DNA of 41,116 bases. It comes from Methylophaga sp. GTDB taxonomy: Bacteria > Pseudomonadota > Gammaproteobacteria > Nitrosococcales > Methylophagaceae. Both the position numbers and the translations under genes were made by a program. Below, one piece after another: positions 873 to 40,710 of the stretch (position 1 is its first letter; every line of letters starts with the position of its first letter). Where the stretch lies: the NCBI GenBank assembly GCA_007117275.1, contig SKGV01000074.1:1-41116 (forward strand), written 5' to 3'. Below the pieces are notes generated by a model. The model had not been told where the DNA came from. It made no database searches and worked only from the letters and a program-made list of their open reading frames with translations.

Positions 873-1428
873 ACTGGCAGCGACAACGCCAACAAGACAC
901 GCAGGAAATACCTGCAGCCGAGGCGAAAGGTCAAAACGTCCCAGCCCCCTAAAGGTGCGTCCAAGGGGAGAGACTGGCTAAGAGTTCTTTTGAGAAATCG
1001 ACAGTACTACGAACGAATTTCTGTTTTGCTTAGTGCCGTCTACCCCAGCAGGCGGTGGGGCTAATAACACCTGCACTTTGAGCGGACTCCTCCTGTGTAA
1101 AAAAAGTTCGTGATCAAAGCGACTGGTCGCCGTAAGCGGCCAACAACGCGATCCGCTGCGTAGTGCGGAGCAATGCCTGTCGCTTGGGCTGAGAATACAG
1201 GCGACATCGGGAAGGGTTTGTACCAATCGCCTTGAGGCGAAAATAAAGGGGAAGCCTGATCAACTTTCGCAAACCCTTCACCGATGCAGTGAATGTGTAG
1301 GCTGATGCATCACGACAAAGATCCAGGTAATGCTGATGCTGCTCGGAAAGGTCGTAAAAACTTAGAGCCCAGTTGCTGTACTGCCAAAACAGTCGCGCAC
1401 CACCAGGCGGTTATCTGGTGGCCCCTCA
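873..1428 (+). ncRNA. Putative structured non-coding RNA leader or ncRNA cluster
   Basis: No credible ORF. Many stems, at 901-915, 941-977, 1124-1142, 1152-1169, 1178-1206, 1205-1286 (CATCGG-GAAGGGTTTG...CAAACCCTTC-A-CCGATG) and 1400-1421. Confidence 0.5.
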
Positions 1429-1505
1429 GCGCCCATAGCTCAATCGGATAGAGTAAGTGGTTTCTACCCACTAGGTTGCAGGTTCGAGTCCTGCTGGGCG
1501 TGCCA
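1429..1505 (+). tRNA. tRNA-Arg, anticodon TCT
   Basis: Cloverleaf with GCGCCCA/TGGGCGT acceptor stem, D arm, AGTGG-TT(TCT)AC-CCACT anticodon arm, GCAGG-TTCGAGT-CCTGC T arm and an encoded CCA. Confidence 0.95.
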
Positions 1506-1575
1506 ATCAGAATGCGCTTTGTCTGCTGGAATGCCAGTGGATCTAAGAGCGCATCCTGATTGAGTGGAAGTCCTT

Positions 1576-2283: not shown

Positions 2284-2712
2284 GTGCAGGTCTCGATTTT
2301 CAACCAGACCAAGCAAAGCGCTTGGAATTGCTTTCACGCTGAAGGCGTCGCAGCGCTCGCTGGCGGCCTTGAGATTGAAGACTGCCCTTACAGCTCGTGC
2401 AATCTATTCGCGCGGTGTGCGTGGATGGCTGGCTATTGTGACGGTATAGCGGAGGTGGCAATGGATCACATCAGGATGGTTTTTCCAGATGACCTAACAA
2501 TCTGCGAGCTAAAGCAGATTTCCGAGTTAGGTATCCAGCCTGCGTGGCTGGTAGTTAATGGTGAGTACAAGTGGCGGTGGTACAGCACTGAGGTCTTGCT
2601 CGGCGAGATCGAAGAGATCTCTACGATCCTCGGCGCTGACTGCTCTTTTGAGTACGCCAGCGCGAACTATGCGCTATTTATTCGGCGCGAGCAGCAAGTT
2701 AAAGCAGCATAA
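2284..2712 (+). CDS. Hypothetical protein with N-terminal Rmf/CrpP-like motif; internal RBS and in-frame ATG at 2461
   Basis: EGVAALAGGLEIEDCPYSS...RCAWMAGY resembles the Rmf G..AG..G.....CPY.....R..W..GW pattern. Confidence 0.55.
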   Translation: MQVSIFNQTKQSAWNCFHAEGVAALAGGLEIEDCPYSSCNLFARCAWMAGYCDGIAEVAMDHIRMVFPDDLTICELKQISELGIQPAWLVVNGEYKWRWYSTEVLLGEIEEISTILGADCSFEYASANYALFIRREQQVKAA

Positions 2713-2776
2713 AAAAAGCCCCTTCCGGCGGCTACCGGTTGGGGCAGTCATAAAACAGCAGATGGAGTATTCCAAA

Positions 2777-3652
2777 ATGAATCAGCAAGTGCAAGCAATT
2801 GAAATAGCCAACCAGCAATGGATGGCTGCAAACCCTTTAGTCGCATCGCGCGGTTTAGATGAATCCACCTGGAACGCTCTTTGCTCAACCATTTATCCAG
2901 GCTCAAAGCCGGAGTCAATCTTGATGGCTGTTGACTACTGTCGGGCGCGCAAGCTCGACATTATGTTGAAGCCAGTCCATCTGGTCCCCATGCAGGTCAA
3001 AGACGCTCAGTCAGGCCAAAAGCAATGGCGCGACGTGCCTATGCCTGGTGTTGGGCTTTACCGTATTCAGGCTGACAGGTCGGGCGACTATGCTGGTGCA
3101 GATGAGCCTGAGTTTGGCCCAATAATTGAAGCCGAGTTCGATGGCCAGGATTACAACAACAACGCAATCAAGGTAAAGGTCCGTTATCCAGAGTGGTGCA
3201 AGTACACGGTTTATAAAATGATTGGCGGTCAGCGCGTAGCTTTTAAGGCCACTGAGTTTTGGCTTGAAAACTACGCCACTCAGTCCGCCAGATCTGAAGC
3301 GCCTAACGCAATGTGGAAGAAGCGGCCTTTTGGTCAGCTGGCAAAATGTGCAGAAGCTCAAGCTCTTAGAAAGGGGTGGCCTGAGATTGGTCAAGAGCCT
3401 ACTGCTGAGGAGATGCAGGGCAAAAGCTTTAATGAGGTGGATATTACTCCAGACCAGAGCAGCCAGAATCATCAGCCTTCCCGCCCTGCTCTGGAATATT
3501 ACCCAGAAGAAAGCTTTAACCAAAATTTCGGCAAATGGGCGCAAGCAATCTCAGCAGGCATGAAGACTCCTGACGAAGTAATTAAGACGGTCCAGCAAAA
3601 AGGTATCCTGACCGAAGAACAGCAACAGAAAATCAGAGAGGTGGCAGCATGA
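2777..3652 (+). CDS. bet: Phage recombination protein Bet (RecT-family ssDNA annealing protein)
   Basis: YCRARKLDIMLKPVHLVP, GVGLYRIQADRSG.YAG and MWKKRPFGQLAKCAEAQALRKGWPE motifs; GGAG RBS before ATG 2777. Confidence 0.9.
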   Translation: MNQQVQAIEIANQQWMAANPLVASRGLDESTWNALCSTIYPGSKPESILMAVDYCRARKLDIMLKPVHLVPMQVKDAQSGQKQWRDVPMPGVGLYRIQADRSGDYAGADEPEFGPIIEAEFDGQDYNNNAIKVKVRYPEWCKYTVYKMIGGQRVAFKATEFWLENYATQSARSEAPNAMWKKRPFGQLAKCAEAQALRKGWPEIGQEPTAEEMQGKSFNEVDITPDQSSQNHQPSRPALEYYPEESFNQNFGKWAQAISAGMKTPDEVIKTVQQKGILTEEQQQKIREVAA

Positions 3653-5235
3653 TTATCATGGACCTGGTGCAAGGATCAGAAGCTTGGCACAAATTTCGCG
3701 CCGAGCACGACACGGCATCTGAAGCCAGCATTGTTATGCAGTGCAGCAAGAATGTATCCCGTAGCGAACTGCTGCGGGAAAAAGCAACCGGCTCTGAGCG
3801 TGAGTTCAGCGCCTGGTTTGAGAAAAACATTCTGGAAAAGGGCCACCGGGTCGAGGCTTTGGCCCGGCCTATCGTTGAAGCAGATATAGGAGAAGAGCTT
3901 TATCCAGTTACCGGCAAGTCAGAAGACTATGATCGCCTGGCAGCCAGCTTTGACGGTATAACCATGCTGTTTGACATTGTTTGGGAGTGCAAGCAGTGGA
4001 ATCAAGAAAAGGCTACGAGTGTTCGCGAGGGCAAGATTCCAGAGTGTGACTTCTGGCAGGTGGTACAGCAGCTTGTTGTTTCGCGCGCGCGTACCTGTAT
4101 TTACACGGTGTCTGATGGCACCGAAGAAAATACGATCTCTTGCCAGTACCAGTTGCAACCAGAAGATGAAATGCAGCTGGTTTCAGGCTGGGCACAATTC
4201 AACGAGGATCGCGCTGCCTACACAGCTAAACCTGAGCAGGCTGAAGCAGTCGGAGAAAAGCCAGAAAGCCTCCCTGCTCTGCGCATAAATCTGACCGGCG
4301 CAGTCACTGCCAGCAACCTCGCTGAGTTCAAAGAGCAGGCTTTGGCACGGATTGATGCAATCAAAACCGATCTGCAAACTGATCAAGATTTTGCTGATGC
4401 TGAGCAGACGGTGAAGTTCCTCAAGGGTGGTGAAAAGGACTTGGAGGACGCCAAGGCTAAGGCGCTGCAAGACACGGCCAGCATTGATGAGCTGTTCAAA
4501 ACAGTCGATGAGCTCAAGGAAAAGCTGCGCCAAAAGCGGCTGACTCTTGAAAAGCTGGTCAAGGCCGAAAAGGAAAACCGCCGTCTGGCTATCCTGCAAT
4601 CCGCCCTGGCTGACTGGCGGGAATGGCTGAGCGCGCAAGACTGCCCTGTCACTCTGACGCTACAGCCTGCCGTAGCTGAGGCCATGAAAGGCAAGAAAAG
4701 CATCAAAGGCTGGGAGGATGCCGCAGCCGATGCGGTAGCCAGCGCCAAGATTGAAGCTCGAAAGGAGATTGAGCGCATCAAAGCCAACTACGACTGGCTG
4801 AAGGTCAACGGAAAGGATCACATGCACCTGTTCCCCGACTGGGCGCAGCTGATTACCGCTGACGCAGAGCTTATGCAGCTCAAGGTTCAGCAAGCCATCC
4901 AGCAAGAGCAGCAGCGCCTGGATGCAGAACGCGAACGTATCCGTCAGGAAGAAGCGGACCGCATTCGTGCAGATGCGCAGCGCAAGGTTGAAGAGGTACA
5001 GCAAGAGCCAGTGCAAGGGCCGTCTGAATCAGCGCCTAATGATGATCCTGGTTATCGCTTGCTGCCGCCACTCAAGCCAGCGAGCGCTGTCAGCCAGCCT
5101 GAGCAGGTCACAATCAGTAAGGCCGAATACCAGCGTCTGCTGGAAGCCGAAGCCCTGCTGGAAGCCCTGAAAGCGCACGGTGTAGAGAAACTGGCCTGCT
5201 GGCGTAAGGCTGCTGAGCAGCTGGAAGCGGCGTAA
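3649..5235 (+). CDS. YqaJ/lambda-exonuclease-family protein with a long coiled-coil C-terminus
   Basis: QGSEAWHKFR..TASEA, GHRVE..AR, ASFDG, WECK and QVVQQL motifs; ATGA-coupled to bet. Confidence 0.9.
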   Translation: MIIMDLVQGSEAWHKFRAEHDTASEASIVMQCSKNVSRSELLREKATGSEREFSAWFEKNILEKGHRVEALARPIVEADIGEELYPVTGKSEDYDRLAASFDGITMLFDIVWECKQWNQEKATSVREGKIPECDFWQVVQQLVVSRARTCIYTVSDGTEENTISCQYQLQPEDEMQLVSGWAQFNEDRAAYTAKPEQAEAVGEKPESLPALRINLTGAVTASNLAEFKEQALARIDAIKTDLQTDQDFADAEQTVKFLKGGEKDLEDAKAKALQDTASIDELFKTVDELKEKLRQKRLTLEKLVKAEKENRRLAILQSALADWREWLSAQDCPVTLTLQPAVAEAMKGKKSIKGWEDAAADAVASAKIEARKEIERIKANYDWLKVNGKDHMHLFPDWAQLITADAELMQLKVQQAIQQEQQRLDAERERIRQEEADRIRADAQRKVEEVQQEPVQGPSESAPNDDPGYRLLPPLKPASAVSQPEQVTISKAEYQRLLEAEALLEALKAHGVEKLACWRKAAEQLEAA

Positions 5236-7377: not shown

Positions 7378-8301
7378 ATGATGAACGCCATCACGCAAAC
7401 AACGATTACTCTGCAAATTCCAGCGATGCCACTGGCTGGCCAGCACATCTCTGTCGGCAATCACGTCATCTACACCAATCAAGATGATTGTGCGGCAACA
7501 GCTCGCATGATCGAGCTCACTGATCTCACTCAGCGCCAGCAGCAGCGCATTCACGACATGATGCAGCGCTTGGCCGAGGCCGAGGAGTGCAGCGCAACGC
7601 AAAGCGCAGTCAGCAGTGAAGAGTTGGTTAAGGCGCGAGCGCGAGCAGAGCTTTTTAAGATCAGCCTCGCTGAGCTAAAGCAAGAATTCAAAGTGATTGA
7701 AACCAAGGCACGGAAGGCCGAAGCGCTGGCAGCGCAAGAGACGCAGCGCGCCGAAAAGAAGTCCGATCGCGTGCAGAAGCTGCAAAAAGAAGTGAAGCAG
7801 CTCACTGGCCAAATCAGCATGCTGACAAAGCAGATCGAAGACCAGAAAAAGCGATTCAAGCGCGAGTATATCGATGAATCGAAGCCGACAGCTCAGGTCG
7901 GTGGCGGCCGCATTGTCGTGCAGCTGCACGGCGATCAGATCCACGTCCATGATCCGGCCTGCTGCTACCTCATCAGCAGTCAGCCGCTGCCAGATGAGAG
8001 CGATTTTGCGCCGGTATTCAAAGGCTATCCGTTTGAAGCTATGCTAGACCAGCATAAAGACCTCAAAGAAGCCATTGAGCACGCGATTAACGGGCTGGCC
8101 AAGGACTGGCGCAAAGCGAAAGAAAAAGTGTTGGTTGCTGATCTAGATGAAAAGCCGCAGCTGCTGCGGAAAGTATGGGATTCAGGTTTTATATTCGCGG
8201 CAGACCTTCGCGGCCAGCTAGATAAAGTTGCGGCACTGCCTGGTATTGGCTCGGCGTCAATCAAGCGGCTTGAATTGGCGCTCAATAAAGCAGGTCTTTG
8301 A
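7378..8301 (+). CDS. Coiled-coil protein with a C-terminal helix-hairpin-helix, RNAP alpha-CTD-like domain
   Basis: Long heptad region; C-terminus ADL...GFIFAADLRGQLDKVAALPGIGSASIKRLELALNKAGL. Confidence 0.65.
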   Translation: MMNAITQTTITLQIPAMPLAGQHISVGNHVIYTNQDDCAATARMIELTDLTQRQQQRIHDMMQRLAEAEECSATQSAVSSEELVKARARAELFKISLAELKQEFKVIETKARKAEALAAQETQRAEKKSDRVQKLQKEVKQLTGQISMLTKQIEDQKKRFKREYIDESKPTAQVGGGRIVVQLHGDQIHVHDPACCYLISSQPLPDESDFAPVFKGYPFEAMLDQHKDLKEAIEHAINGLAKDWRKAKEKVLVADLDEKPQLLRKVWDSGFIFAADLRGQLDKVAALPGIGSASIKRLELALNKAGL

Positions 8302-8317
8302 TCTGCACATCTTTTTG

Positions 8318-8342
8318 AAGCCGCCCAAAAGGGCGGTTTTTT
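8318..8342 (+). terminator. Intrinsic terminator
   Basis: AAGCCGCCC-aaaa-GGGCGGTTTTTT. Confidence 0.75.
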
Positions 8343-8366
8343 ATACCCCTATCCCAAGGAGCTGTC

Positions 8367-8744
8367 ATGGCACGCGGAGTGAACAAGGTGATTTTGGTGG
8401 GCAATCTGGGCAATGATCCAGATATCCGTTACACCCAGAATCAGAAGCAGGTGGCGAACTTGAGTGTTGCCACCAGTGAGCAGTGGACAGACAAAAACAC
8501 CGGCCAAAAGCAAGAGCGGGTCGAATGGCACAAGGTAGTGATGTTTGACCGTCTGGCTGAAATTGCAGGCCAATACCTGAAAAAGGGCAGCAAGGTCTAT
8601 ATCGAAGGCAAGCTGCAAACCCGCAAATGGCAGAACCAGCAGGGCCAAGATCAGTACACCACTGAGATTGTGGCCAATGAGATGCAGATGCTGGATGGCA
8701 GCACCAGTCAGAGCCAGCAGCAAGGCTATCAGCAGCCTCAATAG
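8367..8744 (+). CDS. ssb: Single-stranded DNA-binding protein, C-terminally short with no acidic tip
   Basis: [18 protein letters not shown]...EWHKVV...[19 protein letters not shown]...YTTEIV OB fold. Confidence 0.95.
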
Positions 8745-8818
8745 AGTTACGGTCAGCCAGCGCAGCAGCAGGGTGGCTACCAGCAACAGTACGCACGCCC
8801 TTAGCTCAGGAGGCATAT

Positions 8819-8998
8819 GTGATCCACCTTTCTCTTGTAGTGCTTCTTTTTGTTGCGTATTTCGGGGCTTACGCAGCGATCCACTGGTTTGTGATTGGTG
8901 CAATATCAAGCAAAGCAATAGAGCGCGCCGTTCTGGCTTTCGCTCCCTTTGTCGTGATTGCGCCTTGGATTTACGTTTGGAAAAAAATATTGGGGTGA
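8819..8998 (+). CDS. Small membrane protein with two hydrophobic segments (59 aa; not in the supplied ORF track)
   Basis: AGGAGG RBS, GTG start; MIHLSLVVLLFVAYFGAYAAIHWFVIGAISSKAIERAVLAFAPFVVIAPWIYVWKKILG. Confidence 0.65.
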   Translation: MIHLSLVVLLFVAYFGAYAAIHWFVIGAISSKAIERAVLAFAPFVVIAPWIYVWKKILG

Positions 8999-9001
8999 GG
9001 T

Positions 9002-9190
9002 ATGGAGCCAGAAACCGGGACCCTATGGATACACAAAGCGCGCGGCCATCTCTGCATAGTGGAGTACACGCTGCGCGTGCGCAGAACAAGAATGGTCGCT
9101 TACAGAGCTCCAGCGCAAGGCGTGAGCGACACATGCAGACTGGCGACTGTCAGCGAATTTTTGAACCGATTTGAGAGGTTGGCGGCGTGA
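9002..9190 (+). CDS. Small hypothetical phage protein
   Basis: GAGG RBS; tightly coupled to its neighbours. Confidence 0.6.
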   Translation: MEPETGTLWIHKARGHLCIVEYTLRVRRTRMVAYRAPAQGVSDTCRLATVSEFLNRFERLAA

Positions 9191-9936
9191 GCGAAATCAA
9201 AAGCAGCATGACAGATCTGGAGTGGTTGGCGCGCAATGTGGATAAAGTGCCTAATGGCATGCGAGTCATGAGACGTGTTGCGCAAGCAACGGTCTTTAGT
9301 GACGACCCGCATAAGCGCTGCTGGTCGGGATGGTTCACGGTTGCCGAATGGCAAGCCGAGCGCGAGCGCTTGCAGAATAAGCCCAGCTGGAGCGACGCAC
9401 CGGATTGGGCGCGGTGGCGGGCGCAGGATTCCAGCGGCATCTGGGGGTGGCATGATGCAAAGCCGGACCCAGACCACCGGCTATGGGTTTGCATGGGCGA
9501 AAAGGCAGATTTTGCAGGTGAGAGTGAAGTCCTTGGTGATTGGCGCGACACGCTGGAATATCGGCCTGAACCAGAGCGCCAGCATCCGGCTGCAGCAGTG
9601 GCTCTAGTGCCAGAGTTAAACTCTACGCAATTTAAACCAGGCATTGAGCGGCATCCTGAGGACGATCTGCCTAACAAGCTAAGTCCTGTGCCAATGCACG
9701 AGCTTTATCCTAATTATTACATGGATTGCCGCCACCTCGACAGCATCGATGTTTACGGCGTGCACGATCTTTTCGGCGTGAAAGATGAAAGCGGATGCCT
9801 TCAGCACGCAGGCAAGAAGATACTGCTATCAGGCCAGCGGAACGGCGGCAAAAGCCTCTATCAGGATATCAAAGAGGCCCGCGACACGCTTACCCGAAAA
9901 CTGCAACTGATGGAGCAAAACAATGAAGCCAGTTAG
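9187..9936 (+). CDS. Multi-domain hypothetical phage protein (W-rich module plus DUF3310-like C-terminal module)
   Basis: PSWSDAPDWARWRAQDSSGIW motif; C-terminal IDVY...QHAGKKILLSG.R.GGK...DIKEA.D. Confidence 0.65.
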   Translation: MSEIKSSMTDLEWLARNVDKVPNGMRVMRRVAQATVFSDDPHKRCWSGWFTVAEWQAERERLQNKPSWSDAPDWARWRAQDSSGIWGWHDAKPDPDHRLWVCMGEKADFAGESEVLGDWRDTLEYRPEPERQHPAAAVALVPELNSTQFKPGIERHPEDDLPNKLSPVPMHELYPNYYMDCRHLDSIDVYGVHDLFGVKDESGCLQHAGKKILLSGQRNGGKSLYQDIKEARDTLTRKLQLMEQNNEAS

Positions 9937-10225
9937 CGATGATGCCGAGGCTTGGTATCCGCCGAGCGATGCAGCCTTGTCTCTTGAAAGAATCAGATCC
10001 GAAAGAGATCACTACAAAAGAATGGCGGCTGAAATGGCCGAGCTTGATGCGGCAAGGCGCAGCGCTGCTCCTTTAATTGGAATTGATAGGCAAAGAATCC
10101 AGCAGCTGGCTTTAAAGGCTGGGTTCACGCTCAAAAAGCAAGAAAGCGGGGGTTATGACCTGAGCCCCTGTATCTATGATCTTGCAGAGCGAATCAGCAG
10201 AGAGCTTCAAGGGAGGTTCAAGTGA
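9923..10225 (+). CDS. Hypothetical protein
   Basis: GGAG RBS; overlaps the end of the upstream gene. Confidence 0.65.
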   Translation: MKPVSDDAEAWYPPSDAALSLERIRSERDHYKRMAAEMAELDAARRSAAPLIGIDRQRIQQLALKAGFTLKKQESGGYDLSPCIYDLAERISRELQGRFK

Positions 10226-10335
10226 AAAAGCTATCTGAAACATTGCGCCAGATTCATGTTCAGCTGGGGATTGAGATTCATAGGTGGCGTTATATCACGC
10301 GAGAAGACACGATATTTTTTAAGTATCAAAGATAA
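10222..10335 (+). CDS. Possible 37-aa peptide
   Basis: GGAGG RBS and GTGA overlap with the upstream stop. Confidence 0.35.
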   Translation: MKKLSETLRQIHVQLGIEIHRWRYITREDTIFFKYQR

Positions 10336-10376
10336 ACAAGAATCCTAGGAGATCGAGATGAGTGCAGGAGGGCTGG

Positions 10377-10628
10377 ATGCAAAAGCTAAAAATTGGTGAC
10401 CATGTGAGATTTATTGGGCAGAGCTGGGGATATAAAAACCCCGTTCTTTTGATGCTTGTAAACAGAACTGGAGTAATAGAGTCAATATCCGACAAAGCAG
10501 AAGCGGACTGGTTTGTAAGAATGGACGAAGGAGTTATTGATATTGATGCAAAATCAAAAGTGCTGGGAAAGATTGAGCCGCATGAGGCTGATAATTTTGA
10601 GTCTCGTGAAGTGTGCGAGCAGGTATAA
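10377..10628 (+). CDS. Hypothetical protein (SH3/KOW-like start); stop codon lies inside attC-like site 1
   Basis: GGAGG RBS; MQKLKIGDHVRF...; TAA at 10626-10628 is part of GTATAAC. Confidence 0.7.
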   Translation: MQKLKIGDHVRFIGQSWGYKNPVLLMLVNRTGVIESISDKAEADWFVRMDEGVIDIDAKSKVLGKIEPHEADNFESREVCEQV

Positions 10629-10670
10629 CGCCGCAATCAACGGCCTGTCCGTTGCATTGCTTTGTTATTT
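10623..10670 (-). repeat. attC-like site 1 (48 bp)
   Basis: + strand GTATAAC GCCGC AATCAAC ggcctgtcc GTTGCATT GCTTT GTTATTT. Confidence 0.8.
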
Positions 10671-10701
10671 GATGGATTAAGAAAATTGAGAGGTGAGGGT
10701 T

Positions 10702-10941
10702 ATGGGCGAAGAGCGAAAAACCAAGGAATTGGCCGAGAAGGCGAAGCAGGTCAGTATTCCAGAATGGGCAACTCACGTTGCAGTTAGGACTGACGGCAGT
10801 AAATCCGAGCCTTGCGCGTGGATGGAAAAAGCCAATGATTATGTAGACGAAGACCCTAGACAGCTAAAAGATGGTATGTGGGCTGGGGGATATAAATCCT
10901 ACTACTGGGTGTTCTTTGATCGCGCAGAGTTAGCCAAATAA
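10702..10941 (+). CDS. Cassette ORF A, hypothetical (79 aa)
   Basis: GAGG RBS; fills the space between sites 1 and 2; stop lies within the TAAC of site 2. Confidence 0.75.
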   Translation: MGEERKTKELAEKAKQVSIPEWATHVAVRTDGSKSEPCAWMEKANDYVDEDPRQLKDGMWAGGYKSYYWVFFDRAELAK

Positions 10942-10987
10942 CGCCGCAATCAACGCCCGTTAGGTGCGTTGCATTGCTTTGTTATTT
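10936..10987 (-). repeat. attC-like site 2 (52 bp)
   Basis: + strand AAATAAC GCCGC AATCAAC gcccgttaggtgc GTTGCATT GCTTT GTTATTT. Confidence 0.85.
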
Positions 10988-11023
10988 GAACGAAACATTA
11001 ACGAAGACCACGAGGTAGATGCT

Positions 11024-11293
11024 ATGAGCGATTTTGCAAAACTTTTCCAGAGCGAAAAGTATGGGCAACTGGTTGTGATTATGCAGGGATCAGACGATGG
11101 CTGTCCGGAGCTGAGGATCTTTATGCAACCTTCTGGGTACGGTGTGTGCTCTATGGGCTTGCAGTACGAAGATTCTGATAGCGGATGGGATAAGTGTGAA
11201 GCCAATTTCGAGAAGGCGGATCTGGCGTGGGCGGAACGGACGGTGCAGCCGACGCTTGATTACATCGCATCTGCTAACGCGCAAGAAGAATAA
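11024..11293 (+). CDS. Cassette ORF B, hypothetical (89 aa)
   Basis: GAGGT RBS; MSDFAKLFQSEKYGQLVV...; stop lies within the TAAC of site 3. Confidence 0.75.
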   Translation: MSDFAKLFQSEKYGQLVVIMQGSDDGCPELRIFMQPSGYGVCSMGLQYEDSDSGWDKCEANFEKADLAWAERTVQPTLDYIASANAQEE

Positions 11294-11338
11294 CGCCGCA
11301 ATCAACGCCCGCAGGCGCGTTGCATTGCTTTGTTATTT
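11288..11338 (-). repeat. attC-like site 3 (51 bp)
   Basis: + strand GAATAAC GCCGC AATCAAC gcccgcaggcgc GTTGCATT GCTTT GTTATTT. Confidence 0.85.
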
Positions 11339-11354
11339 GGCTCTGGAGGCGAGA

Positions 11355-11645
11355 GTGGAGCACATAAGAGAAGCATTAAATGCAGTTCTGGAGCGTGCAG
11401 CATCTCTAACAGATGATCAGCTGCAAGCCGAGTTTGACTCTTGTAGGGGCGGGGCCGTTGCTTATGCCGTGAAAGGGATGTGGAACACTCCGAGACATAT
11501 TTGGATTGTGATGTGTTCCGACCATGAGGCCAGCTGGCCTATTGCGGCATTTTGGGATGAGAATAACGCACATAATCATGCCAAGAGCAGAAGGCTACTC
11601 CCTAATGAGATCAGTTGTGAAGTGATGCCGATGAGAGTGTTTTGA
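11355..11645 (+). CDS. Cassette ORF C, hypothetical (96 aa)
   Basis: GGAGG RBS 5 nt before GTG 11355; ends 2 nt before the AAATAAC of site 4. Confidence 0.7.
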   Translation: MEHIREALNAVLERAASLTDDQLQAEFDSCRGGAVAYAVKGMWNTPRHIWIVMCSDHEASWPIAAFWDENNAHNHAKSRRLLPNEISCEVMPMRVF

Positions 11646-11647
11646 AC

Positions 11648-11707
11648 AAATAACATTGAGATAGCGTGCCTGCCTACTATTCAGGCACGACTATCATTTC
11701 ATCAGCG
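11648..11707 (-). repeat. Variant terminal att-like hairpin (site 4) at the convergence of the early and late arms
   Basis: AAATAAC ATTGA GATAG-CGTGCCTG cctactatt CAGGCACG-A-CTATC ATTTC ATCAGCG. It has the same R-5nt-stem-5nt layout and one bulged base, but the distal R box is degenerate. Confidence 0.55.
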
Positions 11708-11708
11708 A

Positions 11709-11957
11709 TCAAAAATAATTATCGAGAGCCTGTTCGACTTTAGTTCTCAGAGTTGATTCTGTTTCTTTTTTCAGTGCCTCAATCCCGCTGCTCTTAATGC
11801 TATCCAGCGCCACGCGCATCTTATCCTGATCTTCGAGGCCAGACTGCTCCGCGACTTCAATTCCGCGCTTGATCTCTGCTGCAAGAGCTTTGTCCATTGC
11901 TGTTCGCAGCAGGAATTTGGCCAGTTCGAAAGCCAGCACTTTTAGAAAACTTGTCAT
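11709..11957 (-). CDS. Lysis-cassette-associated hypothetical protein with an amphipathic N-terminal helix
   Basis: Coupled to the endolysin stop; MTSFLKVLAFELAKFLLR. Confidence 0.65.
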   Translation of the reverse strand: MTSFLKVLAFELAKFLLRTAMDKALAAEIKRGIEVAEQSGLEDQDKMRVALDSIKSSGIEALKKETESTLRTKVEQALDNYF

Positions 11958-12367
11958 TGTGTTACCTCTTTGATTTTAAAATCCTGCGCCCAAGTTGATA
12001 CATCAAAGCACGGGCACTGCTTCTCCGAAACCTGATTATGCCCGATCACTTTAGCACCCTGATGCTGGCAAAGGAGCGTCCCAACCAACCCTTCAAGCGT
12101 ACGCCATTGAGCAGCCGTGAAAGTTGCGCCCTCTGTGCCGCCTACCATGCAAATTCCAAGGCTGTTATGGTTGTGGCCTCTAGCGTGAGCACCTTGCTCA
12201 TTGTCGTTCCTGCCCTTTTCCAGAGTGCCATCCAAACGAATCACATAGTGATAGCCAATATCACGCCAGCCGTTGCCCTCAACATGCCAGCGGCGAATCT
12301 CCTCTGCTGAAACATCGCGCCCCGCAGGAGTATCCGAGCAATGAATTATTAGCTGTTCGACTATCAT
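11954..12367 (-). CDS. Endolysin, N-acetylmuramoyl-L-alanine amidase (T7 lysozyme-like)
   Basis: IIHCS, GWRDIGYHYVI..DG..E.GR, GAHARGHN..SLGIC.VGG and GH...K.CPCFDV motifs. Confidence 0.93.
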   Translation of the reverse strand: MIVEQLIIHCSDTPAGRDVSAEEIRRWHVEGNGWRDIGYHYVIRLDGTLEKGRNDNEQGAHARGHNHNSLGICMVGGTEGATFTAAQWRTLEGLVGTLLCQHQGAKVIGHNQVSEKQCPCFDVSTWAQDFKIKEVTQ

Positions 12368-12561
12368 TCAACCCACCTCTTTACGCCACCATTTGCAGAG
12401 CACACGCCGCGCCCGCGCTCTGCTGTTGTATAGCGCCCGTTATTGCACTCAGCAGTGACACCGATTAAACGCCGCTCGATCGACTGCTCTTTAAGAATCA
12501 GCGCAGCGACTAGCGCACACGCCACCACTACAATAAAAGATGAAGCTAAAAACTTTCTCAT
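12364..12561 (-). CDS. Small membrane-anchored DUF3761-like protein
   Basis: N-terminal TM; TAECNNGRYT...GRGVCSANGGVKRW resembles the TA.C.DG.YS....RG.CS.HGGV..W pattern. Confidence 0.6.
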   Translation of the reverse strand: MRKFLASSFIVVVACALVAALILKEQSIERRLIGVTAECNNGRYTTAERGRGVCSANGGVKRWVE

Positions 12562-12863: not shown

Positions 12864-12900
12864 TCACATGTTTCCAAGCCAGTTAAATGCGGTTATTGTA

Positions 12901-13320
12901 TCACAGGTCGTCCAGCTCTTTGCGCAGCGATTCTGCCTCAGCATCTAGCTCCGCCAATCTATCCCGATCTTCTGCTGTGTCCGTTCCGACATTGATTGCG
13001 CGCAGAGGGCGGACAGACTCAAGGTCGAGGCGCTGGAGTTCGGATTTTATCTCGCTAATGCGCTCCGCATCTTTCTCGGTTTGAGTCTCCTCAGGTTCTG
13101 GCTCGTGATACCAATCCCCATCCTGCCAAACAGGCTCTTTGTGACCCTCTTTCTTTTCGGGCTTGATCGTCAGAACCACAGTACCGTTATGTGCTTTAAT
13201 AAGCCCGCCTGAAAGTGCATGGCTTCGAGCTTCGTCATATTTCTCGTCAGAAATCTCGACACCTTCATCAATAGGGCGTTTGCTTATTTGTCCTTCTGCT
13301 GCGTAGGGCATTTTATACAA
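12901..13320 (-). CDS. Tail fibre assembly/chaperone-like protein
   Basis: Follows the tail fibre; C-terminal ELQRLDLESVRPLRA...RLAELDAEAESLRKEL. Confidence 0.6.
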   Translation of the reverse strand: MYKMPYAAEGQISKRPIDEGVEISDEKYDEARSHALSGGLIKAHNGTVVLTIKPEKKEGHKEPVWQDGDWYHEPEPEETQTEKDAERISEIKSELQRLDLESVRPLRAINVGTDTAEDRDRLAELDAEAESLRKELDDL

Positions 13321-14311
13321 TCCTCATATAATAAGTGGTCTCAATGTGCTTAACATTTGTATGATCGCCGGTTCTAGCGCTGGGGGAGTTGGCAGAGTCG
13401 AAATCGACTATGAACGGCCCTGGAGTTATAGCTGTGCTTTGAATTCCGTTTCCTGTAGAGCCAGTAGCGGTAAACGCTCCGGATGCGCTTCTTATTTGTT
13501 TTGCGCCAATCGAATCCCCTCCCTGAAACTGACCAGTTATCCGCTGCATCTGGTCATTAGCAACTGCGCCACTATTTTTACCCGGCATCAGGTAGCGGTT
13601 TTCCGAGTTAATCAGGTGGATTGTATTCCCAGCGAGTGGGCCTGTTGCAATCTCGGCTGTAATTTCAATAGTAGGGCCGCTGCCGGTGATTGTTTCGTTG
13701 ATCAGCAGCCCCTCGTTAAACTGTCCAGCTCCGTCAAGTCCTGCCGTGAGCTTTACGAATTTAGCATCACCTGCATTGCTGGGTTCTACAATTCCGTTTA
13801 AGTGGGTTGCAAGATTAAAGGTTTCGCCAATAATTTTTCCCATCTCGCCTAGCCGAAGCGGGTGCGCCCGATCAGTCGGAGCGCCTATTTTAAAAGTGCC
13901 GCCTGAATCTCTGACCGGCACGCTATCGGCAGTGGCTTCGGTGTCAAACGCAAAAACACGCCACTCAGACGAGGGGGGCGCGGTTGTGGTGCCGTCAACA
14001 ACAGCCTGATAATAAACCCCATTAAATCGTACAACAGCGGTTTCTGGGTAGGAATAAAGATTGCCCAAACCATCATCAGCGATAAACTCGGGGAACCCTT
14101 GCTCTTGCCATTCTTTAATGTTTGCAGTGGCATCATTGAGCACTTGATTAAACGGCTGCCTGCCAATGCTTTTTCGATTCGGGTCAGTTTTTGGTAGCGA
14201 GTAGTCCGGTGTGTAGCCCTGCTGATAGCTGACACTTCCACCGGCCGCCTCATCTGGAATGGGTTGGCGGTCGCCATTGACTGCCCACGGAAAACGAATG
14301 TATTTAGCCAT
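13313..14311 (-). CDS. Tail fibre protein
   Basis: N-terminal PWAVNGDRQPIP..GSVSYQQGY..DY baseplate-anchoring motif; C-terminal DQMQRITG...FDSANS..ART...T.VK fibre motif. Confidence 0.8.
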   Translation of the reverse strand: MAKYIRFPWAVNGDRQPIPDEAAGGSVSYQQGYTPDYSLPKTDPNRKSIGRQPFNQVLNDATANIKEWQEQGFPEFIADDGLGNLYSYPETAVVRFNGVYYQAVVDGTTTAPPSSEWRVFAFDTEATADSVPVRDSGGTFKIGAPTDRAHPLRLGEMGKIIGETFNLATHLNGIVEPSNAGDAKFVKLTAGLDGAGQFNEGLLINETITGSGPTIEITAEIATGPLAGNTIHLINSENRYLMPGKNSGAVANDQMQRITGQFQGGDSIGAKQIRSASGAFTATGSTGNGIQSTAITPGPFIVDFDSANSPSARTGDHTNVKHIETTYYMRIV

Positions 14312-39759: not shown

Positions 39760-40710
39760 TCAGTCCCTCGCCCAATCTGGAATTTCTGTTTCGCCGTAGT
39801 TCATCTGGTCGAAGCCAGAATCGACATAGCCAATACGACCATCAGCGCGTTTCGGTGCTCTTGGCGCTGCAATCGCCCAGTCGTTTTCAAACTCGCGGCT
39901 GGTGCCAAAAAACCGCTTGGCTTGCATCACGAAACCGGTACCGAGGTCGCCCTTAGCTGTGACGAATACAGCGTACCGCTGAACACCAGCGAGCATGTCT
40001 TCAGGGCTGACACCTTCGGCCAGACGTGCGCGCCAGCACTCGAGTGCCTTGTTTTTTGGATTGGAGCCTTCGCGCTTTGGATACGCAGACCAAGCTTGCT
40101 CGAAAGCTGGATCAGCAGGCTTGGTGTTCGGGGCTGGTTTTTTGGGTGCGGGTTTTTGTTCAGCTGGCTGCTGATCGACAGTCACTGGCTCGGGTACGTG
40201 TGCCACTAATGCGTAAGCATTAGGGGTTTTATCTTTTATATTTTGTAGAGTTTCTTTTGTGTGGGACTGTTTTGGTACTGCCTGAGAATCCAAAACGGTA
40301 CTGTTTTTCGGGACTGTTTTGGATTTAACAGGACTGTTTTGGTGCTGATCTGTTTTCCAGTTTTCCAGATCCATGTTGATACCGATCTCGCGCCCTGATT
40401 TAAACAAAACATTCATAGATACCAGCTCTCTAACAATTGCTCTAGCCCTTGTCTCTGGGAGGCGTGTTTTTTCTTCTAACTGGCTGCCGGAAACCCAATC
40501 TGAATCCTTGCCGTATCCAAGTGTTTTTCTTGCAACAGCCAAGAGAATCTTCTGCTGACGCTTGGTAAAGTCGTGATACATGATTGCTTCCAGCAAGGCG
40601 TTAGGAATGCGCGTGTAGCCATCCTCCATTGTTGCCACCTGCTTAGGTTTGCAAGCCTCTTGCTGAGGCTCGCTGATGGGTTTTACGGGGAATTGAAGTA
40701 CAGTGCTCAC
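39760..40710 (-). CDS. Replication initiator, lambda O-like N-terminal domain
   Basis: DGYTRIPNALLEA...R.T.GY.K..D motif; internal iterons; C-terminal FEQAWSAYPKR domain. Confidence 0.88.
   Translation of the reverse strand: MSTVLQFPVKPISEPQQEACKPKQVATMEDGYTRIPNALLEAIMYHDFTKRQQKILLAVARKTLGYGKDSDWVSGSQLEEKTRLPETRARAIVRELVSMNVLFKSGREIGINMDLENWKTDQHQNSPVKSKTVPKNSTVLDSQAVPKQSHTKETLQNIKDKTPNAYALVAHVPEPVTVDQQPAEQKPAPKKPAPNTKPADPAFEQAWSAYPKREGSNPKNKALECWRARLAEGVSPEDMLAGVQRYAVFVTAKGDLGTGFVMQAKRFFGTSREFENDWAIAAPRAPKRADGRIGYVDSGFDQMNYGETEIPDWARD
40225..40342. other. Probable replication origin: iterons plus AT-rich tract inside the initiator gene
   Basis: GGACTGTTTTGG at 40264, 40311 and 40331, a variant GGTACTGTTTTT at 40297, and an adjacent AT-rich run at about 40225-40260. 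Confidence 0.75.

Follow-up and report, generated by a model that had tools for sequence, protein, structure and literature searches.

A circular phage genome that takes up the whole 41-kb stretch of DNA analyzed here (the window; 41,116 nucleotides, with a 111-nt terminal overlap) carries an array of three attC cassettes, with genes on the bottom strand of the sites and an attI-like sequence at one end. We consider it probable that these cassettes are moved by the integron enzyme of the host, IntI, and are expressed from early transcription that enters the array from the far end. By definition, the array is a CALIN, with at least two attC sites in one polarity and without the intI gene of a complete integron, and it probably works like an integrase-less integron with mirror-built cassettes.

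The feature is real. Qi et al. (2023; PMC9892861) likewise describe attC clusters in phages without intI: the available text of that report covers 17 phage CALINs and shows that phage attC sites recombine with IntI1, the bottom strand being preferred. The same text (the figures may show inversions) describes the phage cassettes as oriented like bacterial arrays, whereas those in the window are inverted; as far as the available text goes, it reports no inversion of ORFs relative to attC, no attI-like end common to phages and no CRISPR-linked host that has matching cassettes. A literature search covering few subscription papers turned up nothing on phage cassettes in inverted orientation, attI mimics in phages or integrons of Marinospirillum, and the available portions of four further reports (PMC8876359, 10.1101/2024.07.02.601686, PMC11551772 and PMC12690207) contain nothing bearing on inverted phage cassettes.

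The phage genome and the location of the array

PHROG scans of 64 ORFs delineated a lambdoid early region on the plus strand, with RecT-like and RecE-like genes (2558-5235) and SSB, a myovirus-type late region on the minus strand, and replication genes encoding an O-like initiator and DnaC, with no integrase. Repressor-like and anti-repressor genes are present alongside those for the O-like protein and DnaC, again with no tyrosine-family integrase. A six-frame search of the phage contig with PF00589 gave no match, that is, no tyrosine recombinase, and neither intI nor any match to IntI was found in the window. The array occupies the end of the plus-strand early run and faces the lysis genes. 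Iteron-like repeats within the O-like initiator gene (40254-40347; no strand assigned) point to a predicted origin, and together with the GC skew they make the plus strand of the array the predicted lagging template for the nearer fork.

The phage contig is C69 of bin G000, where it was grouped with the genome of a gammaproteobacterium; this bacterium is probably not the host. This bin as the host is not supported: it contains no IntI above the cut-off, and its SSB is 76% identical to that of the phage. As five of 24 genus relatives of the bin possess IntI, it is an unlikely rather than an impossible host.

Anatomy and polarity of the attC sites

A strict-threshold scan of the window yielded exactly three attC sites, all with the top strand on minus and none with the top strand on plus. 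Site 1 (10623-10670, 48 bp, predicted crossover 10628/10629) heads cassette A, site 2 (10936-10987, 52 bp) heads cassette B and site 3 (11288-11338, 51 bp) heads cassette C. At the same threshold, no site was detected in any of 20 Markov-1 controls or in the other 171 contigs of the bin. Read on the minus strand, all three sites share one layout: R'' (AAATAAC), a 5-nt spacer, an L'' of 8 nt that includes the extra base (position 16), the central part, a 7-nt L', another 5-nt spacer and R' (GTTAT..). The spacers have an unpaired centre, in line with the 5-6-nt spacers expected of attC sites. The R boxes keep the conserved AAC/GTT of the consensus (RYYYAAC for R'', GTTRRRY for R') in every site, with flanks that are complementary, although not strictly RYYY. 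An alignment of 20 sites shows two-sided changes, that is, covariation, at 7 of 15 pairs.

The sites are shorter than the attC length range of 57-141 bp given in the available part of PMC5027507, which also places a second extra base (T) at position 23 or 24, six pairs from the first. The sequence-only reading had described a second bulge throughout. This description stands for site 2, where a T bulge at position 23 is separated from the extra base at 16 by a 6-bp stem, and for site 3, where the bulged base is C, and fails for site 1, where position 23 is the first base of the terminal loop.

According to the accessible text of Bouvier et al. (PMC2727003), the extra bases sit on the R''-L'' arm and position 16 selects the strand. 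In the window, the arm with the extra bases is the right arm on plus, which makes minus the top strand; the bottom (plus) strand is the predicted substrate for recombination by IntI. The assignment of the top strand to minus, already proposed from the letters alone, is borne out by the bacterial controls within the same attC family and by the polarity of the host array, both described below.

Cassettes and their genes

Each cassette, read on plus, starts with the attC hairpin, continues with a leader that contains a ribosome-binding site and an ORF, and ends with a stop codon at or just before the AA|C crossover, in a mirror image of the classical order. Cassette A (10629-10941, 313 bp) has a GAGG leader and ORF A (10702-10941, 79 aa) with the stop at the crossover; cassette B (10942-11293, 352 bp) contains ORF B (11024-11293, 89 aa, phrog_9037), and cassette C (11294-11653, 360 bp) contains ORF C (11355-11645, 96 aa). 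Upstream lies ORF0 (10362-10628, plus, 88 aa), which stops on R' of site 1, lacks an attC head and appears to be either a backbone gene or a cassette that lost its head. In a classical cassette, the ORF is on the top strand and stops before or within attC; here, it is on the bottom strand in all three, which confirms the original claim of inversion relative to attC polarity. Direct reading likewise upholds the claim that three ORFs stop on the TAA of a site: those of ORF0, A and B are TAA codons complementary to R', at AA|C. ORF C ends with TGA (11643-11645), 8 nt short of the boundary. R'' matches the far end of its own cassette at 7 of 7 positions in A, 6 of 7 in B and 7 of 7 in C (AAATAAC in C, by direct reading).

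The cargo was predicted to be phage-adapted, and the searches agree. Relatives of ORF B, a member of phrog_9037, turned up in 25 phage records of GenBank and a homolog of ORF A in one such record; ORF A also has 43 homologous protein clusters, and an inverted cassette elsewhere (L226) encodes phrog_19209 (E 8e-24). For ORF C, no family and no tblastn match in GenBank phages were found. None of the eight homolog loci examined, including that in the phage homologous for ORF A, has an attC site. One relative of ORF B (L025) is a translationally coupled early gene, that is, an ordinary phage gene. In the Atlas, the only match of ORF B (0.78) is to an unnamed cluster. No cassette ORF has a Pfam match above the cut-off, and a DNA search of the array against GenBank phages produced only a 39-nt chance match. 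Judging by position, our guess is that ORFs A-C encode small early accessory proteins involved in host takeover or counter-defence.

The attI-like right end

The array ends at a fixed right boundary, an attI-like site of the form CTA-N7-GTT on the minus strand (11648-11676; predicted crossover 11653/11654). The R box at 11648-11654 might suggest a fourth attC site. This assignment is rejected: there is no R'', a bulge is out of register, and the partnerless box lies in an attI-like context. Seven Marinospirillum attI sites share CTA-N7-GTT and a GC-rich upstream part, and against a profile built from these seven related sequences, with a width chosen after looking, the right end ranks first among the 1122 GTT sites of the window; in the rest of the bin, 4 of 36,835 sites score as high. 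It is the best attI-like site of the genome and is shared with the phage G595 (see below), although its 4.5 bits are far below the 21-32 bits of the host attI sites. Consensus scans, which are weak, detected no promoter beside the site that could serve as Pc.

The right-end pattern was found in none of 401 genomes of the order of the host, and a DNA search of the right end against GenBank phages returned nothing. No relatives of ORF0 or of the last late gene were found in viral contigs and, consequently, no genome with an empty site. Where the early and late operons converge, a hairpin (11660-11695; no strand assigned) overlaps the attI-like site; it is a possible terminator, and its stable fold is not conserved in G595. 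Part of it (11660-11686) is a 27-nt inverted match (78%) to 13901-13927 in the tail-fibre gene, probably by chance.

The same attC family in bacterial integrons

The two-arm pattern of these sites occurs at 115 loci in bacterial genomes, mostly those of marine and haloalkaline Gammaproteobacteria. Most of the 117 matches have a length of 48 bp, the commonest class; once nine duplicates are removed, 108 distinct upstream cassettes remain. Among these, 102 have the gene in the same sense as the top strand, 4 are inverted and 2 could not be classed; a symmetric test for open frames gave 89 cassettes open on the top strand only, 12 on both, 6 on neither and a single one on the bottom strand only. 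All four inverted cases (L054, L062, L111 and L128) come from Marinospirillum. At four loci (L055, L061, L076 and L078), an IntI match of 39-42% lies upstream and is divergent, as in classical integrons; two weaker matches (30-33%), differently placed, were discounted as belonging to other recombinases. A metagenome scan for the family found three loci representing one distinct cassette, in the same sense, with one locus beside intI.

The sedentary chromosomal integrons of Marinospirillum and similar bacteria (IntI, TIGR02249) resemble the phage array in the 48-bp attC family and in the polarity rule of the sites, and those of Marinospirillum also in the simple, attI-like site that heads the array on the top strand. 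Unlike the Marinospirillum integrons, the phage array has no intI and no predicted expression from the Pc side, its genes are on the bottom strand and are preceded by the hairpin, their stops lie on the complement of R', and the cassettes measure about 310-360 bp.

The 48-bp class (L026-L140) lies below the shortest attC length published, 57 bp; it is widely distributed among Halomonas, Marinobacter, Alcanivorax and their kin. In 41 of the 102 same-sense cassettes, the ORF runs into attC before stopping.

Inverted cassettes in the array of the apparent host

A protospacer in the phage (1179-1214, plus) is identical at all 36 positions to a CRISPR spacer of Marinospirillum sp. MEB164, the only one of the 32 spacers examined that matches the phage perfectly, and the ssb gene of this bacterium is 87% identical to that of the phage. 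This host link and the attI-like right end go beyond the sequence-only reading. MEB164 encodes an IntI above the TIGR02249 cut-off, at the end of a contig that stops at the attI sequence, and IntI above the cut-off is found in 8 of 13 Marinospirillum genomes. No prophage like this phage was detected in MEB164 or its genus, and a family-wide search returned mainly ssb.

Small contigs of MEB164 are fragments of an array in which 28 sites were detected: 14 that close a repeated gene-less cassette, 9 long ones with same-sense genes and 5 short ones. The short sites and one more at a contig end each head an inverted ORF (6 of 6), with the same polarity as the neighboring sites. All six ORFs are preceded by a ribosome-binding site and end with a TAA no more than 4 nt away from the boundary; one of them (L152, 581-632), scored automatically as same-sense because of an overlapping open frame, was reassigned by its ribosome-binding site and its stop at TAAC. 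Three of the host inverted ORFs have no tblastn match in GenBank phages, and in PHROG, five of the six have no match and the sixth only one with E 0.0097. We infer that the fragments belong to the intI-linked array; in a relative of MEB164 (L274), the same gene-less cassette directly follows attI. Short sites with same-sense genes are also known, with four others in Marinospirillum and eight in the genus of the bin.

One site of the MEB164 array (L111) is the same as site 3 of the window except for two bases from the neighboring cassette, and the leaders are alike. No single cassette identical in the phage and in the host array was found. Among 10 inverted cassettes, seven have an R'' fully complementary (7 of 7) to the far end of their own ORF, with letters that differ between cassettes, which shows that each hairpin moves together with the gene behind it on plus. 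The inverted cassettes of MEB164 are placed antisense in the host array, as had been anticipated for capture by a host integron. The further suggestion of a cassette pool distinct from the bacterial one is not supported in its simple form, given that inverted cassettes reside within Marinospirillum arrays and that one phage (L287) has classical-sense cassettes. The best reading, judging from the sequences, is that of a pool that would be distinct in orientation, build and cargo, yet not separate from that of the host.

The gene-less cassette is about 390 nt long, has an attC of 113-114 bp and is repeated at least 15 times in the MEB164 array (contigs L156, L157, L217, L219, L220, L222 and L223 of G041).

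Inverted cassettes in other phages

Two two-arm scans of viral contigs gave no matches, and all 18 matches in a single-arm scan with a 17-mer lacked the partner arm and were dismissed as chance. The last scan of viral contigs found eight loci. A survey of viral contigs for ORF orientation had been proposed as a check of the inversion, and its outcome is divided: one locus (L284) is inverted, whereas the other seven are same-sense or of host type.

The inverted locus lies in a complete 75-kb phage, G595, where four small ORFs on the plus strand, flanked by Sak4-like and Cas4-like genes, are headed, in the inverted sense, by intact or degenerate sites of this attC family. The last ORF of this array ends on the right-end sequence of the window (25 of 29 positions identical, rank 1 of 2637 in G595). 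G595 has no match to PF00589 and thus no tyrosine recombinase. The two phages have in common only the genes at the tail-fibre end, a tRNA-like stretch and the sites, and are otherwise unrelated. The tail-fibre end and the next gene (12888-13945 in the window) are 78-81% identical to G595; this common tail-fibre end hints that the two phages may share a host range. The tRNA-like gene in the early region of the window (1428-1506) is 86-87% identical to tRNA regions of MEB164 and G595.

In another phage (L287, 2581-3530), small genes lie between attC sites of the same family within the early operon, from the exonuclease to a Sak4-like gene, in the classical sense; thus, not every phage with such cassettes has them inverted.

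A second region of G595 (L243, 2725-3060; at about 34,600 in G595) contains a single inverted cassette with a damaged R', of the same sub-type as the MEB164 cassettes, with the ORF end matching R'' at 7 of 7 positions.

A route for cassette exchange and its alternatives

Under the scenario we propose, host IntI would recombine the plus strand of the phage sites and would insert cassettes at the attI-like end, leaving the newest gene last in the operon; cassette C is likely the last inserted. IntI would also move such cassettes into the host array, where they would face Pc. Phage and host thus likely swap backwards cassettes via the host integron enzyme. In the phage, read-through from the early operon would enter the array from the far end and express ORFs A-C. 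Such read-through is plausible; no plus-strand promoter was found in 8200-12000, and the hairpins of sites 1 and 3 have a terminator-like score on plus, so that read-through may be partial.

According to the available text of Loot et al. (PMC5371416), attC sites fold and are excised more readily when on the lagging template, and the orientation is the opposite one in 25 of 30 chromosomal integrons; the bottom strand of the phage array, on the predicted lagging template, differs in this respect from most chromosomal integrons. The mirror build would combine co-directional genes with high cassette turnover. Off-platform GWT insertion (10.1101/2022.09.11.507474, as far as its available part shows) offers a route for a host IntI in the absence of a platform, and both ends of the phage array carry GTT cores. 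Unlike GWT insertions, the right end of the phage array is attI-like and common to an unrelated phage, and the orientation of the cassettes is uniform rather than random.

A broader model, to which we assign somewhat less than an even chance, holds that phages of Marinospirillum-like hosts, although unrelated, carry an attI mimic, hijack host IntI and load small early genes from a common mirror-built pool, and that the host integron stores the same cassettes, silenced, as a gene bank for later phages. Integrons have been regarded as bacterial tools and, in recent years, as reservoirs of anti-phage defence. In the present case, phages also appear to make use of the integron enzyme, and the orientation of a cassette would mark which partner can express the gene. 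The model shows concretely how small early genes of phages could turn over, would explain some unexplained antisense cassettes in chromosomal arrays, and suggests a bottom-strand ORF as a simple filter for integron genes of phage origin. It lends itself to the standard E. coli recombination assay, the host being named, cultured and equipped with IntI and the sites being 50 bp long.

The sites could instead be attC by origin, with the genes shuffled by RecET-type annealing between near-identical hairpins and leaders and with IntI acting rarely, for example, when cassettes are trapped in a host array. We regard this as unlikely, albeit with several observations in its favor: the phage encodes RecT-like and RecE-like proteins, the arrays of G595 and L287 likewise adjoin genes for Sak4-like annealases, the three sites of the window are near-identical, and several sites of G595 are degenerate. 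The variation among relatives bears on this alternative. When contigs of four runs from two studies were aligned to 9500-12500 (one run, X1, is possibly the source sample and so not independent), many matched the hairpins only; the sequence before 10617-10629 was different, as were the ribosome-binding sites and start codons that followed. A loose end in X1 equals the first cassette gene of G595. Among the matches listed, a relative from X2 with a matching backbone has joints 10671->10934 and 11007->11646, so that the same sites enclose different genes and the backbone resumes at the right end, and X4 has a joint 10670->11648 and ORF A behind a head like site 2. With joint sides of 20-50 letters, the X2 and X4 cases are supporting rather than decisive. 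The flanks switch at the AA|C position (loose ends before 10623-10629), which argues against annealing; furthermore, homologous exchange would not maintain an R'' complementary to the end of its own ORF in differing letters, and would not need a conserved attI-like end.

Even less probable is a bacterial nature of the inverted cassettes, as a minor class that the host expresses from antisense promoters in gene-less cassettes and from which the phage merely acquired some members. Such promoters have been reported (10.1101/2023.11.21.568050, in the part available), and three of the six inverted cassettes in the MEB164 array directly adjoin a gene-less cassette. However, gene-less cassettes are common in MEB164 anyway, with 15 starts there, and a consensus scan found no antisense promoter in them. 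Moreover, inverted cassettes make up 4 of 108 in bacteria, confined to one genus, and all cassettes in two phages, and the relatives of ORF B are ordinary phage genes.

It is very improbable that the polarity was misread, such that in this short family the minus strand recombines and the genes are in the normal sense. The base at position 16 is C on the bottom strand, a minority letter, and G, the usual bottom-strand letter, on minus; the loops are richer in purines on minus; and the folding energies of the two strands are practically equal (-11.6/-11.6, -16.7/-16.1 and -13.4/-14.0 kcal/mol for sites 1, 2 and 3), with no advantage for plus. The polarity call does not rest on these energies. 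Against a misreading, this sequence serves as the top strand in 102 bacterial cassettes and also where it follows a divergent intI, the short sites of MEB164 point the same way as the long host sites, and a G->C change at position 16 costs only 2.7-fold, the strand being selected by position and not by identity, according to the accessible text of PMC2727003.

Equally remote is the notion that the hairpins are now mainly RNA elements, attenuators or stabilisers ahead of small genes, that no longer recombine: each precedes a ribosome-binding site and two are terminator-like, as noted above, but the R boxes, spacers and extra bases are all kept, the content at the sites varies between relatives, and no Rfam family matches the hairpins.

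Apart from these arrays, four viral contigs (L238, L250, L252 and L255) contain attC-like sites of about 90 bp that are followed by a bottom-strand start codon; in L238, a tyrosine integrase is encoded nearby.
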